NCBI GenBank assembly: GCA_044892525.1
Contig: CM097885.1
Span: forward strand, 30,196,001 to 30,260,000
Direction: 5' to 3'
Source of the DNA: Schmidtea polychroa
Lineage: Eukaryota
Length of the DNA: 64,000 nt
Part shown: piece by piece, positions 17,168 through 35,991 of the stretch
How positions within the stretch are numbered: the first letter of the stretch is position 1
Layout of the letters: each line of letters opens with the position of its first letter
Program-made: the position numbers and the translations under genes
Notes under the pieces: model-generated
What the model was told of the DNA's origin: nothing
Seen by the model: only the letters and a program-made list of their open reading frames with translations
Database searches by the model: none

Positions 17168-17330
17168 AGTAGTAGGATGTGTCACCACTGGCACATGTCA
17201 CCTCTGGCACACCCCCCCCCGGGGGGTAAAAAAAATTTTTTTCAAGGTCAAATTTTAAACAAAGACATATGACTCATCAAGGTCATTGAAACAAAGGCCA
17301 TGACTCATCCTATGACTCATCAAGGTCATT
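17168..17330 (+). repeat. Polinton left terminal inverted repeat
   Basis: Reverse complement of 35826-35991 apart from homopolymer lengths and a few substitutions. Confidence 0.95.
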
Positions 17331-17850
17331 TTCAAGGTCATATGACTCATACTATGACTCATCAAGGTCATTTTCAAGGTCATATGACTCATACTATGAC
17401 TTATATGCCGTTCAAAATTTTTTTTTCAAGGTCATATGACTCATAGTATGACTCATCAAGATTCTCAAGGTCATTTAAACAAAGACCATGACTCATCCTA
17501 TGACTCATCAAGGTCATTTTCAAGGTCATATGACTCATACTATGACTCATCAAGGTCATTTTCAAGGTCATATGACTCATACTATGACTTATATGCCCTT
17601 CAAAATTTTTTTTCAAGGTCATATGACTCATAGTATGACTCATCAAGATTCTCAAGGTCATTTAAACAAAGACCATGACTCATCCTATGACTCATCAAGG
17701 TCATTTTCAAGGTCATATGACTCATACTATGACTCATCAAGGTCAAAAAAATTTTCAAGGTCATTTTCAATGTCATCTGAGTCACCCTATGACTCACCAA
17801 GGTCATTTCCAAGGTCATATGAGTCATCGCGATGAGTCATCAAGGTCATA
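17240..17850 (+). promoter_or_regulatory. Subterminal tandem array of TGACTCA, TCAAGGTCA and AACAAAG motifs
   Basis: More than 20 TGACTCA/TGAGTCA and about 20 TCAAGGTCA words. A similar array on the opposite strand lies at ~35540-35910. Regulatory function is inferred. Confidence 0.55.
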
Positions 17851-18008
17851 TTATTATTTTTTAAAAATATTATTATTTTTATTATTATTTTTAAAAAATA
17901 TTATTATTTTATTTTTAAATTTTTCAACGTTCCCGCCAACGAAAAATAATAATCGATAGCTCATTTTAAAGCGCAATCCAAGACCTTTCGAATGAGCTAT
18001 ATATCATG

Positions 18009-18208
18009 TTATTATTATTATTATTATTATTATTATTATTATTATTATTATTATTATTATTATTATTATTATTATTATTATTATTATTATTATTATTATT
18101 ATTATTATTATTATTATTATTATTATTATTATTATTATTATTATTATTATTATTATTATTATTATTATTATTATTATCATTATTATTATTATTATTATTA
18201 TTATTATT
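18009..18208 (+). repeat. (TTA)n microsatellite
   Basis: Near-perfect trinucleotide run. Similar runs at ~27300-27480, 29398-29545, 34780-35000, 61618-61800 and 62254-62510. Confidence 0.98.
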
Positions 18209-18336
18209 AATCTATATACACCGAGTCTATATACTCCGAGTCTATCCGACAAAATATTTTGTCCCCCTATGGGTAATGCTCACAAGGGTACTGGTCACGC
18301 TCAACAAATCAACAAATCAACAAAACATACATTTAT

Positions 18337-18837
18337 TTAAACAATAAAATAATGTAAAATTAACAAAGGTAAACTAAATATTGATGTACTACTATTCGCA
18401 GCAATATTGTTTGAAATTGGTAACGTTGAATTGATTTTCAGATATTCTATTGATCCTTTGATTGTTTGAATTTCTCTTAATAATAATTCAATCTTTTTTA
18501 ACAAATAATCATGCTTCTTATCAATAATTTTCATATTCTTTTTATTTTCAACAATAGAGTTATTGAAAACCATAATATGATCAATCAAATTAAATTTTAT
18601 ATTTTGTATATATTCAAATGATAGTTCATAACTGTTTTCTAAATTCTCCAATCTTTGAGATATTCTTTTTCCTGGATGCTTTGACCATTTTGGTTTGTCG
18701 AGAATATATAAAATATCCATCAACTTCGCTGTATTCGGACAAACACATATTGATTTATTAAAAGACTCCACTGTTATTGTTGTATTGTGTGAGCACACAC
18801 TCGTTATAATAATTAGCAATATGAATATAGTTTTCAT
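18337..18837 (-). CDS. Polinton hypothetical secreted/surface protein (signal peptide, coiled coil, hydrophobic C-terminus)
   Basis: MKTIFILLIIITSVCS signal-like N-terminus, heptad-rich middle, and ...AANSSTSIFSLPLLILHYFIV* C-terminus. Confidence 0.7.
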   Translation of the reverse strand: MKTIFILLIIITSVCSHNTTITVESFNKSICVCPNTAKLMDILYILDKPKWSKHPGKRISQRLENLENSYELSFEYIQNIKFNLIDHIMVFNNSIVENKKNMKIIDKKHDYLLKKIELLLREIQTIKGSIEYLKINSTLPISNNIAANSSTSIFSLPLLILHYFIV

Positions 18838-33800: not shown

Positions 33801-33842
33801 CGAGATCAACAATTCGATCAAATATTCAATTCAATAATTTAA
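27808..33842 (+). CDS. polB: Protein-primed family B DNA polymerase; predicted 6 exons (27808-27856, 27902-27964, 28015-28107, 28157-28255, 28306-28686, 29806-33842), ~1573 aa
   Basis: ExoI VIYADFES, EndoVII-like CYLC..RDHCH..CRKCN, YIDINNLYG, KIYNNSLYGK and AGDTDS in 29829-33842. Five phase-1 GT-AG introns keep the upstream exons in frame. The core is near-certain; the exon model is less so. Confidence 0.9.
28742..29197. repeat. Minisatellite (gaaaatgatttat-like) bracketed by a ~38-bp inverted repeat, inside pPolB intron 5
   Basis: 28742-28779 is the imperfect reverse complement of 29159-29197. Confidence 0.7.
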
Positions 33843-34102
33843 AGTTTTATTTTGGGCCAATTATTTAACATTGTGATTATATTTGTGTAAATACGATGTT
33901 GAATAAAAATTTGTAAATATGATGGCGAATAAAAAATTTGTAAATATTTAGTTATTTTTGTTTGTCAACTTTTTATGGTATATTTTTGTGTTATAAATTT
34001 TATAATAATCAACTATGTTTTTAGTTATTTGTGATAGAAAGTTGAAATTATATAATAATAATAATAATAATAATAATAAGTAGGAGTTTTACAACATTTA
34101 TT

Positions 34103-34671
34103 TCAAAAATACACTGAATGAGATTCATCGATTATGACACCACAACTCTGACATCTACTACAGTTTTTCAAACATAAGGAACAAATAATGATATGACCAC
34201 AAGGCAGATATAGAATAGAAACTTCTCGAATTCGACATATACAACATGTAATAAACTGTTTTCTGACTTCATTCAGTAAATTATGTATTGTAATACCAAG
34301 TTTATATGCATTAAGAAGGAAGATTTCAATAAGCTCGCGATATTTTCCGAACCTGAAATCCATACATATCCAGAAAACCTTAAGCATGTTAATTTCTGTA
34401 TGGTTAATATTATTTATAGATATTATACAGCTGGTTAATTTCAACATCGATATATTGAAGCCGAACTTATCAAATAGATTTTAAATTACTTGATGTTTGA
34501 AAGATTTATTTATTTTGGCCAGGAATATATAATCTTCATCATTTATTGTTAGAAGTTTATCTATTATTAAAAAAGAATGATCCCAATCAATAGACAATTC
34601 TTGTACCTTATTTAAAATAGTTAAATTACTAAATAATTATAACATCAAACCTGTGGATCGTTTGAAGACAT
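34103..34671 (-). CDS. IAP-type C3HC4 RING finger protein without BIR domain; 2 exons (intron 34607-34650), in-frame TAA at 34481-34483 may disable it
   Basis: CCIC.....ILYLPCGHIIIC..C......CQSC...I....VYF C-terminal RING; upstream MSSNDPQ|VQELSIDW exon. Confidence 0.8.
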
Positions 34672-35825
34672 CGATGAATATTTGTGAATGTTGTAAATGA
34701 AGTTATTAGACCTATTTATATATATGTTTCATAATAATAAAAATAATAATAATGATATTTTTACTTTATTAAAACACTAATAATAATAATAAAAATAATA
34801 ATAATTATAATAATAATAATAATAATAATAATAATAATAATAATAATAATAGTAATAATAATAATAATAATAATAATAATAATAATAATAATAATAATAA
34901 TAATAATAATAATAATAATAATAATAATAATAATAATAATAATAATAATAATAATAATAATAATAATAATAATAATAATAGTAATTATAATAATAATAAT
35001 ATTTTTACTTTATTAAAACAAATTAAGACAACACGCGCACGGATTCCCTTTTGAATTACCTTTAAAATGACCCCTTGATCAATAAAATCCAAGCAAAGGA
35101 TTAAATATTAATTTTAAGAAAATACACACACGCAATCTTTAATTAAACTATATAGCCACCATCTTATAAAATATGACCTTTGAAAGTATGACCATGATAC
35201 TTACATCTCAAATACCTTTTGTTTGATATGTATATTATAAGGTTTTAAAATTTTTGAACCCTTCACCTTCGAACTCACCATCAAAAGTCCTTTCGAAATA
35301 TTGTATGGTTTTAAAAATATTTAATTATGGACACCCCTTGAAGGTTATTGACCCACCTTTGAGGGTATAGCCATTAGATAGACCTCTCAAATACCTTTCG
35401 AATGATATATATAGGATAAAGTTTGAAAAAATTCGAAGGTTTTTGACCCTTTGAAGGCCAAGGACCCACCATACACCTTCGAGAGTATGACCATTAGATA
35501 GACCTCTCAAATACCTTTCGAATGATACCCTTTGATGAAGGTTTGACCTTAAAATATGGCCTTGACCTTTAAAAATATGACCTTGACCTTTAAAAATATG
35601 ACCTTGACCTTTAAAAATATGACCTTGCCCTTTAAAAATATGACCTTGACCTTAAAAATATGACCTTGACCTTTAAAAATATGACCTTGGCCTTAAAAAT
35701 ATGACCTTGGTGAGTCATCCAATGACCTTGAATGAGTCATGGTCTTTGTTTCAATGACCTTGATGAGTCACCCATTGACCTTGATGAGTCATCCCACGAC
35801 CTTGATGAGTCATGGTCTTTGTTTC

Positions 35826-35991
35826 AATGACCTTGATGAGTCATAGGATGAGTCATGGTCTTTGTTTCAATGACCTTGATGAGTCATATGTCTTTGTTTA
35901 AAATTTGACCTTGAAAAAAAAATTTTTTTTACCCCCCCCCGGGGGTGTGTGCCAGAGGTGACATGTGCCAGTGGTGACACATCCTACTACT
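35826..35991 (-). repeat. Polinton right terminal inverted repeat
   Basis: Matches 17168-17330. Confidence 0.95.

Follow-up and report, generated by a model that had tools for sequence, protein, structure and literature searches.

In this study, we show that positions 17168–35991 of a 64,000-nucleotide stretch of the Schmidtea polychroa genome (the window; GCA_044892525.1, contig CM097885.1) are occupied by a near-intact endogenous Polinton/Maverick element (polintovirus) of 18,824 bp. The termini, target duplication, capsid, penton, ATPase, protease, integrase and protein-primed polymerase (pPolB) are all present, in line with the Polinton that the preliminary description of this DNA had proposed. 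Moreover, comparison with sister copies in the same genome leads us to consider it probable that this is an integrated Polinton of adintovirus type, belonging to a young, host-spliced family that replicates by protein priming in the nucleus and swaps one block of genes among four arms, each consisting of a polymerase and its termini.

Results

The element has AG-start termini (AGTAGT..ACTACT), which form an inverted repeat that is near-perfect for ~170 nt, and it is flanked on both sides by the 6-bp target duplication CATTAT (17162–17167 and 35992–35997). The left terminal inverted repeat (17168–17850, + strand), which is of type 1 and starts with AGTAGT, carries an array of 23 TGA[CG]TCA and 19 TCAAGGTCA motifs, and the right one (35540–35991, − strand) carries 8 and 10 of them, respectively; in 500 shuffles of the left array the maximum was 2 TGA[CG]TCA and 1 TCAAGGTCA. 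We take TGA[CG]TCA to be an AP-1-like motif and TCAAGGTCA to be NR5A/ERR-like.

The full virion module claimed earlier is borne out, the capsid and penton by structure match and the ATPase and protease by Pfam. The predicted structure of the major capsid protein (25631–26851, +; pLDDT 91.9) matches the double jelly-roll capsids of iridovirus, PBCV-1 and mavirus (E 5e-17), and that of the minor capsid protein (penton allele A; 24224–25267, +) has the mavirus penton as its top match (E 5e-7), with a pLDDT of just 71 and a TM of ~0.3. The A32-type packaging ATPase (21863–22489, +; Pox_A32), the adenain-type maturation protease (26879–27263, +; Peptidase_C5) and the TBP-like protein described below exceed the Pfam cut-offs. 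A double jelly-roll capsid with a penton-type minor capsid protein, and an A32/FtsK ATPase with an adenain-type protease, are thereby in place, as is the rve integrase of a Polinton (23103–24254, +). The integrase has rve (E 9e-6) and chromodomain matches, the former under the gathering score and the latter likewise under the Pfam cut-off, and contains WQMD, QTD and ERFN, which we take to be the motifs of the DDE triad. Two further genes were named from position alone, following the gene order of PMC8097293: a basic protein (PZ; 22508–23041, +), which is kept in relatives, and a small protein (PW; 25260–25634, +).

This virion-integrase-cargo block is shared by four arms of polymerase and termini. 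The pPolB genes fall into four clusters, 98–99% identical within and 74–81% between, and capsid, ATPase, integrase and TBP each form a single cluster at ~98% that is common to the four pPolB types. In 22/22 copies the left and the right terminus are of the same type as the pPolB, either penton allele (B is 54% identical to A, with the greatest divergence in the central region) is found with each of the four types, and the divergence of shared genes between copies of different type goes down to 0–0.4%. This pattern likely reflects repeated module swapping. It is possible, though rather improbable, that ectopic gene conversion among integrated copies has instead homogenized the middle block, leaving ends and polymerase as they were inserted and requiring no exchange between replicating genomes. 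Types 1 and 2 together, with ~1,000 end pairs, would supply many templates, matched ends and intact duplications would also result, and one discordant copy (L039) joins a type-2 left end to a type-3 polymerase, its other end not having been found. However, tracts of 9 kb between flanks that are 20–25% divergent would need frequent conversion, and the purifying selection acting on shared variants indicates that they have gone through functional replication.

The family is young and very abundant, in keeping with the recently active lineage first suggested. There are 325 exact ends of AGTAGT type 1 and 1,684 of a sister type in the genome; at least 102 capsid genes among the best-scoring matches are 99–100% identical with open frames, and perfect, mutually different 6-bp duplications flank 22 of the 24 two-ended copies. 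Since the sisters were chosen as best matches, intactness is overstated. The piN/piS ratio is 0.07–0.24 for capsid, ATPase, integrase, penton and protease and 0.17–0.35 for Bcl-2, TBP, g20 and the surface gene; the Bcl-2-like and TBP-like genes, like most of the cargo, are under purifying selection. The window copy itself is slightly damaged by three private lesions: the ATPase state at 22205 (29/29 and 12/12 sisters differ where found, as for the next two), the pPolB state at 32382 (17/17 differ) and a premature RING stop at 34483 (20/20 differ). Decay belongs to this copy and not to the lineage. The signs of early decay listed in the preliminary description stand in these three genes and fall away for the integrase CINV, which is a family trait and not decay because sister copies share it (28/28 and 11/11 where found). 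An intron hidden behind the RING stop was considered and rejected, given the codon carried by the 20 sisters.

The same data bear on whether these are purely intracellular self-synthesizing transposons that form no particles, their capsid genes hitch-hiking on a recent burst. In favour of this, many internally deleted copies (9.8–14.5 kb) have perfect target duplications, and frameshifts or stops occur in 11/17 type-1 pPolB cores and 8/42 of the capsid genes sampled. We nevertheless regard this as unlikely: shared variants are strongly purged in capsid, ATPase and protease (ratios of 0.04, 0.03 and 0.07) and singletons less so (0.22–0.42), and a pair of highly divergent penton alleles is in circulation in every arm. 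A search of a viral-contig collection found no relative.

The type-1 pPolB (27808–33842, +) is predicted to have six exons and 1,573 aa, with leader introns at 27857–27901, 27965–28014, 28108–28156 and 28256–28305 and a 1,119-nt intron (28687–29805) between five acidic leader exons and the last exon. The acidic gene at 27808–28686, previously counted as cargo, is therefore probably the 5′ part of pPolB, as judged from its splice sites. A separate accessory gene with its own 3′ end, or one only occasionally spliced to pPolB, appears quite improbable, even though the acidic exons have their own upstream YATAAAC box, their allele varies independently of pPolB type, and no RNA junction to pPolB is among the read joints listed. 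Against it, across the four types a phase-1 T|GT donor closes the last acidic exon in 27/30 copies and a phase-1 AG|G[TC] acceptor opens the pPolB exon in 29/30. The predicted junction encodes Cys whatever the type, and the internal Met of the pPolB exon is not conserved among types. It is through its relatives (593 at E ≤ 1e-30, many of them annotated PF03175) that a protein-primed family B polymerase is recognized; close relatives match PF03175 and the window pPolB itself does not in Pfam, where it has a weak Endonuclease_7 match, and a PDB sequence search returned nothing meaningful. Candidate Cys/His motifs may represent OTU, a domain that, together with a pfam03175-type PolB, marks the Alpha adintovirus class. 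As a weak lead, motifs that we label SIM-like are found in the leader in 9/12 copies, with reverse-frame controls reaching 3. Fusion of a terminal protein to pPolB has been described (10.1101/2024.03.18.585575).

Exactly 11 GT-AG introns fit seven genes and give in-phase frames, in agreement with the number first proposed. The protease intron (26884–26920, 37 nt, within codon 2) has GT..AG in 24/24 copies where found, is 37–41 nt long, occurs in all three phases and lies at the same site in 10/16 distant loci, kept at 47–59% capsid identity, with intronless relatives reading through the junction; it can be taken to be old. In contrast, the integrase intron (23491–23625) is lineage-specific: it consists of an (ATT)n microsatellite with a TTTAG|GTA site on either side, is 60–186 nt long in 29/31 sister copies, and 11/11 distant relatives lack it. 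Although the genome is ~72% AT, several introns are just 37–50 nt and the integrase intron is mostly a multiple of three (27/29), it is very improbable that they represent AT-rich gaps arisen by chance, or decay, in pseudogenes: sister copies retain GT..AG despite variable, frame-shifting lengths, relatives without introns encode the protein as joined here, and the position of the protease intron is maintained over such distances. We conclude that pPolB, integrase and protease likely depend on host splicing.

The RNA evidence comes from mapping three runs that we guessed to be RNA and one unclassified, very deep run. Among the read joints listed, none matched a predicted intron, and one contig of low-depth run X2 crosses the 19874–19914 intron unspliced. 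Untemplated A/T tails 11–14 nt beyond AATAAA in two cargo genes hint at poly(A) sites at 19487 (Bcl-2-like) and 20037 (136-aa gene), with one contig each. A third A-tail, at 18958, is without explanation. As a hint only, the start of two contigs of run X1 coincides to the base with that of Bcl-2 exon 2, at 19299.

The rich cargo of the preliminary description is real with regard to its Bcl-2-like, IAP-type RING and TBP-like genes, the exception being the acidic leader discussed above; it is present in nearly all of 30 capsid-selected sister copies, and the scenario of its absence from sisters fails. The Bcl-2-like gene (18958–19472, +; 156 aa) has two exons around a 44-nt intron (19255–19298; GT..AG in 28/28 copies where found). 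Both exons match Bcl-2 proteins weakly and in the correct order: the Pfam match of the protein (E 0.029) is under the cut-off, exon 1 falls into Atlas clusters of Bcl-2 (0.92, low recognition), and exon 2, with BH2 and a hydrophobic tail, matches the Bcl-xL BH2 (best E 0.067), 46/46 matches being named Bcl-2 or Bcl-xL. The BH2 motif is found in 37/40 copies, and exon 1 (piN/piS 0.17) has at least 150 copies in the genome. A protein search gave only two matches, both unspliced predictions, of which the 68%-identical one departs directly 3′ of the predicted donor. A high count of stops and frameshifts in exon 2 was rejected, as 35/40 copies give an exon of 57–59 aa. A BCL-2 module has been described in planarian Burro retrotransposons (PMC6431247).

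The RING gene (34103–34671, −; two exons, intron 34650–34607, 44 nt) encodes an IAP-type RING (cIAP/XIAP, E 2e-8) with no BIR match, and its predicted product resembles a RING E3 and not a full IAP; within type 1 its piN/piS is 1.37 on few sites, with no purifying signal. The TBP-like protein (21322–21759, −; 145 aa; Pfam TBP 1.4e-14) matches TBPs in PDB and is present in 7/49 distant loci. The remaining cargo, all on the − strand, comprises a predicted surface or secreted protein with hydrophobic N- and C-termini and a coiled-coil-like middle (18337–18837; piN/piS 0.35; no Pfam match above cut-off), a small acidic protein of two exons (19551–19936; intron 19914–19874, 41 nt; GT..AG in 28/28 where found, 41–50 nt), a 136-aa protein (20064–20474; piN/piS 0.22; no family in the Atlas) that also occurs in distant relatives (L154, L168), and a 120-aa protein of two exons (20836–21246; intron 21194–21147, 48 nt) with two alleles ~62% identical.

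Discussion

We propose that host factors acting on the terminal TGACTCA/TCAAGGTCA arrays would turn the element on, and that spliced mRNAs would yield a terminal-protein/pPolB polyprotein. Replication is likely nuclear and protein-primed, on linear DNA, and both ends may track polymerase type because the polyprotein initiates solely at its own terminus type. Co-resident types would recombine within the shared middle, with ends re-matched during replication or both crossovers falling inside the ends. The Bcl-2-like and IAP-type RING proteins might keep the host cell alive, and the TBP-like protein might drive genes behind the YATAAAC box; this box is also upstream of the pPolB leader and absent before penton and protease, so that a clean early/late split is not apparent. 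Genomes would then either enter jelly-roll particles or integrate anew, generating 6-bp duplications.

The element resembles vertebrate Mavericks/Polintons in its AGTAGT//ACTACT ends, 6-bp duplication, a size within 12.7–24.6 kb, the run integrase-minor capsid-PW-major capsid-protease, accessory regions and purifying selection on the core, as far as these are set out in the available text of PMC8097293. The same text describes intact vertebrate elements as being without introns (Barreat and Katzourakis 2021) and mostly low in copy number, whereas here seven introns are predicted in pPolB, integrase and protease, the core genes are all on the same strand, and copies number from hundreds to ~1,000. 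Predicted spliceosomal introns in the core are at variance with this published 'intronless' picture and imply nuclear, host-coupled expression. The set of adenain, FtsK/A32 ATPase, rve integrase, hexon and penton, and the PF03175 of relatives of the window pPolB, recall adintoviruses of the Alpha PolB class (Starrett et al. 2021, PMC8502044), in whose available text the sole intron mention found concerns a maturase. Bcl2 and IAP homologues have been reported for adintoviruses, with TBP in a figure legend (PMC8502044), and the cargo described here is less surprising because of this. Transfer of the virion module between PolB classes was likewise reported between adintovirus lineages (PMC8502044), in contrast to the four co-resident arms with terminus-polymerase linkage seen here.

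Differing polymerases in otherwise close elements of one genome, and an endonuclease-type insert in pPolB, are described in nematode Polintons (Jeong et al. 2023, PMC10748475); their terminal repeats, in the part of that work available, are highly conserved across polymerase classes, unlike the type-specific termini found here. Frequent reassociation of replication and morphogenesis modules has been described in Polisuviricotina (Barth, Ha, Aylward 2026, 10.64898/2026.10.13.758929). From what is available of that account, pPolB is tied to the DDE integrase and examples of recent turnover are rare, whereas in S. polychroa the integrase moves together with the virion block and many exchanges within one genome are very recent.

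The host-control cargo of the preliminary description is borne out, and the parallel that it draws with adenoviruses and baculoviruses is a works-like analogy. Adenoviruses have nuclear linear DNA, ITR origins, a spliced E2B polymerase mRNA and the anti-apoptotic E1B-19K, and baculoviruses have IAPs. The element would resemble them in these respects; in contrast to those viruses, the element has an integrase and target duplications, and its RING gene lacks a BIR match.

We think it doubtful that the family is a currently circulating nuclear DNA virus with spliceosome-wired core genes, AP-1/orphan-nuclear-receptor arrays firing on wound or differentiation signals, and a particle-plus-anti-death cassette reassorted among four origin-specific replicons. 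If this is true, the recombination of polintoviruses and the birth of their introns, one of which would have arisen as a microsatellite flanked by duplicated AG|GT sites, could be followed at population scale in a host amenable to experiments. The debate on whether Polintons of animals function as viruses, and on the way in which their replication and capsid modules are reshuffled, is open and has relied for the most part on distant genomes. In the present genome, such exchange can be seen nearly as it occurs among hundreds of near-identical copies, with termini tied to the polymerase type, and therefore the origin specificity of the terminal-protein/pPolB is directly testable.

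Results

The Polinton at 17168-35991 spans 18,824 bp, starts with AGTAGT and ends with ACTACT, has an inverted repeat at its ends that is near-perfect over ~170 nt, and lies between two copies of CATTAT, a 6-bp target duplication. Every Polinton hallmark that could be tested on it was found. It interrupts a gag-like frame of what motifs suggest is an LTR-type retroelement, whose remains at 16779-17167 and 35998-37300 carry CCHC knuckles as well as protease and RT-like motifs; on the minus strand, 41008-42379 holds another, integrase-like piece. A giant palindrome covers 1-15080 and extends ~1.7 kb to the left of the window (locus L152), with arms of ~7.9 kb that match perfectly over 6,215 nt within the window, a 963-nt centre, and AGTAGG-type Polinton-like termini at its ends. 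The second pPolB, frameshifted on the minus strand at 58282-62500, is ~65% identical to all four pPolB types of the window element's family and therefore represents a fifth, more distant Polinton family. A Ser/Thr kinase ORF (Pkinase 3e-30) is present as two inverted parts, 98% identical, at 50641-51492 (minus strand) and 55531-55956 (plus strand), with retrotransposon pol-like fragments between them.

The AT-rich host genome (781 Mb; four contigs of 93-272 Mb) contains at least 102 capsid genes that are 99-100% identical and lack stops, these being the best of 5,016 candidates, of which 102 were scored. The genome holds 325 exact 21-base termini of the window element's type and 1,684 of a sister type, counts that take in deleted derivatives. 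Sisters came from 20-kb regions centred on 30 of these capsid matches and on 20 of 40 RING matches, so that the sample is biased toward good copies. Perfect, differing 6-bp duplications flank 22 of 24 two-ended copies, the window element included.

The family is a mosaic of polymerase arms and a shared block. The surface gene, 136-aa gene, TBP, ATPase, integrase, capsid and protease form one cluster each, at 97-98% nucleotide identity, and the C-terminal part of pPolB forms four (14, 15, 4 and 2 copies), 98-99% identical within and 74-81% between. Each pPolB type has its own terminus sequence: polymerase type agrees with both ends in 22/22 two-ended typed copies and with the single end in 17 of 18 one-ended copies, the exception being sister L039. 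The penton (minor capsid) gene has two alleles, 54% identical, with 3 A and 10 B in type 1, 17 A and 1 B in type 2, 1 A and 4 B in type 3, and 1 A and 1 B in type 4. Because A is rare in type 1, the window copy, which is type 1 with A, is a minority hybrid, and it has matched ends and a clean duplication. Between copies of unlike polymerase type the shared genes differ by a mean of 1.6-2.2% and a minimum of 0-0.4%, and the nearest neighbour is of another type for 4/37 copies (capsid) up to 11/34 (TBP). Element ends are also duplicated internally in inverted form in the regions of L037, L047, L079, L083 and L119, where members of this family may have rearranged by folding back. In the distant relatives L154, L168 and L173, unlike the window element, pPolB and the virion block lie on opposite strands; L168 also has a ubiquitin-conjugating (E2) gene at 225-722 on the minus strand (Pfam 2e-12) and two tandem minor capsid genes at 5652-7684.

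The preliminary description predicted about 11 introns in seven genes, and eleven GT-AG introns in seven genes do yield in-phase frames. In a set of 31 sequences that includes the window element, 28 showed the Bcl-2 intron (44-45 nt), 26 that of the 21-kb gene (48-52 nt) and 24 that of the protease (37-41 nt, lengths in all three phases), always GT..AG, and 29 showed the integrase intron (60-186 nt; GT..AG in 28). Of 30 sisters, 28 showed the intron of the small acidic gene, and the RING intron was found in 20/20; allelic differences limited detection of the four short leader introns to 1-9 sequences each. The integrase is uninterrupted in 11/11 metagenomic relative loci holding both halves, and the window intron is an (ATT)n tract flanked by two TTTAG|GTA sites, which suggests birth by local duplication. 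Ten of 16 relatives, some of which are near-duplicates, have the protease intron within codon 2, its donor being GTAAGT; the remaining 6 are intronless and read directly through the junction. The acidic exons at 27808-28686, previously listed as cargo, are probably a pPolB leader: all are in phase 1, the leader donor is T|GT in 27/30 copies and the pPolB acceptor AG|G[TC] in 29/30, and the predicted junction encodes Cys in all four types, across a predicted intron of 1,119 nt (659-1,606 nt in sisters). In sequencing runs guessed to be RNA, X3 has two untemplated tails, A21 at 19487 and T24 at 20037, both 11-14 nt beyond an AATAAA, and two X1 contigs start exactly where Bcl-2 exon 2 begins; one X2 contig runs unspliced across one predicted intron, an A15 tail at 18958 is without explanation, and none of the joints listed is a spliced joint at a predicted intron.

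The major capsid model (pLDDT 91.9, 109 sequences) matches the double jelly-rolls of iridovirus, PBCV-1 and mavirus, and the minor capsid model (pLDDT 71) best matches the mavirus penton. Pox_A32, Peptidase_C5, TBP and C3HC4 RING pass the Pfam cut-off; the matches to rve, chromo, Bcl-2 and Endonuclease_7 fall short of it. At E <= 1e-30 a search with the element's pPolB gave 593 relatives, many of them carrying the PF03175 annotation. TBP-like genes occur in 7/49 relative loci, and TBP is thus an old gene of the lineage. Type 2 copies bear their own RING gene, 37% identical to that of type 1 and in reverse orientation; none was seen in the type 3 and type 4 copies sampled. Bcl-2 exon 1 has at least 150 matches at 91% or more. 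The Bcl-2 gene (18958-19472) has piS of 0.20-0.24 versus 0.04-0.05 in neighbouring genes, about five times their synonymous diversity, which suggests that older alleles are being exchanged.

Within 611 nt at the left end there are 23 TGA[CG]TCA motifs, which we take to be putative AP-1 sites, and 19 TCAAGGTCA motifs, presumably putative NR5A/ERR sites; the right end has 8 and 10 within 381 nt, and in 500 shuffles the counts never exceeded 2 and 1. Most ends of types 1 and 2 hold many of both motifs, those of types 3 and 4 few. Schmidtea Polintons are described as piRNA targets desilenced in differentiation (PMC8532177, in part). The window element has 12 YATAAAC boxes, and such boxes lie no more than 150 nt upstream of the ATPase, PZ, integrase, PW and capsid genes and likewise of the small acidic gene and the pPolB leader; a search of the element found none before Bcl-2, TBP, RING, the surface gene, penton or protease. 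Judged by these positions, the box is apparently not purely 'late'.

Discussion

A panhandle route for the re-matching of ends is known from adenovirus work. The linkage between terminus and polymerase would be explained if each polymerase fires only its own end type, because the terminal protein and pPolB of Polintons form one fusion protein (10.1101/2024.03.18.585575, in part). The accessible part of PMC9863843 gives ITRs as origins and has the panhandle only in a reference title. In nematode Polintons polymerases are swapped with conserved TIRs (PMC10748475, in part), whereas here the termini change with pPolB type. Polymerase swaps are also known as a broad pattern (10.64898/2026.10.13.758929, in part), and the parts available of 10.1101/2024.03.25.586562 and PMC6431247 add nothing further on them. 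Intact vertebrate Mavericks are reported to be intronless (PMC8097293, in part), in contrast to the predicted introns here, and dinoflagellate polinton-like viruses are known to bear introner insertions (PMC12166617, in part). Within an incomplete coverage of the literature, we found no published description of an intron-rich flatworm Polinton or of terminus-linked arm swapping. The host-control cargo occurs in nearly all capsid-selected sisters, but it is not new in kind: Bcl2 and IAP homologues are already reported in adintoviruses, with TBP named in a figure legend (PMC8502044, in part), and the window element likewise has Bcl-2-like, IAP-type RING and TBP-like genes.

Pairwise piN/piS is 0.07 for capsid, 0.10 for ATPase, 0.11 for protease, 0.15-0.24 for integrase, 0.24 for penton A and 0.40 for the pPolB core; among the cargo it is 0.17-0.24 for Bcl-2, 0.21 for TBP, 0.22 for the 136-aa gene, 0.35 for the surface gene and, from very few sites, 1.37 for RING. 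Purging is clearly stronger for shared variants than for singletons in every gene except Bcl-2 exon 2 (0.25 versus 0.31) and RING. Four marks had been read as hints of early decay. The integrase CINV is common to 28/28 and 11/11 sisters and is no such mark; the other three are private to the window copy, since all sisters in which the site was found differ at the ATPase substitution (29/29 and 12/12), the pPolB substitution (17/17) and the RING stop (20/20). Decay has therefore begun in that copy, while the family shows selection. The earlier view of a recently active virus lineage is supported in part, by the near-identical capsids, the perfect duplications and the signs of selection, and the decay belongs to the window copy, not to the family.
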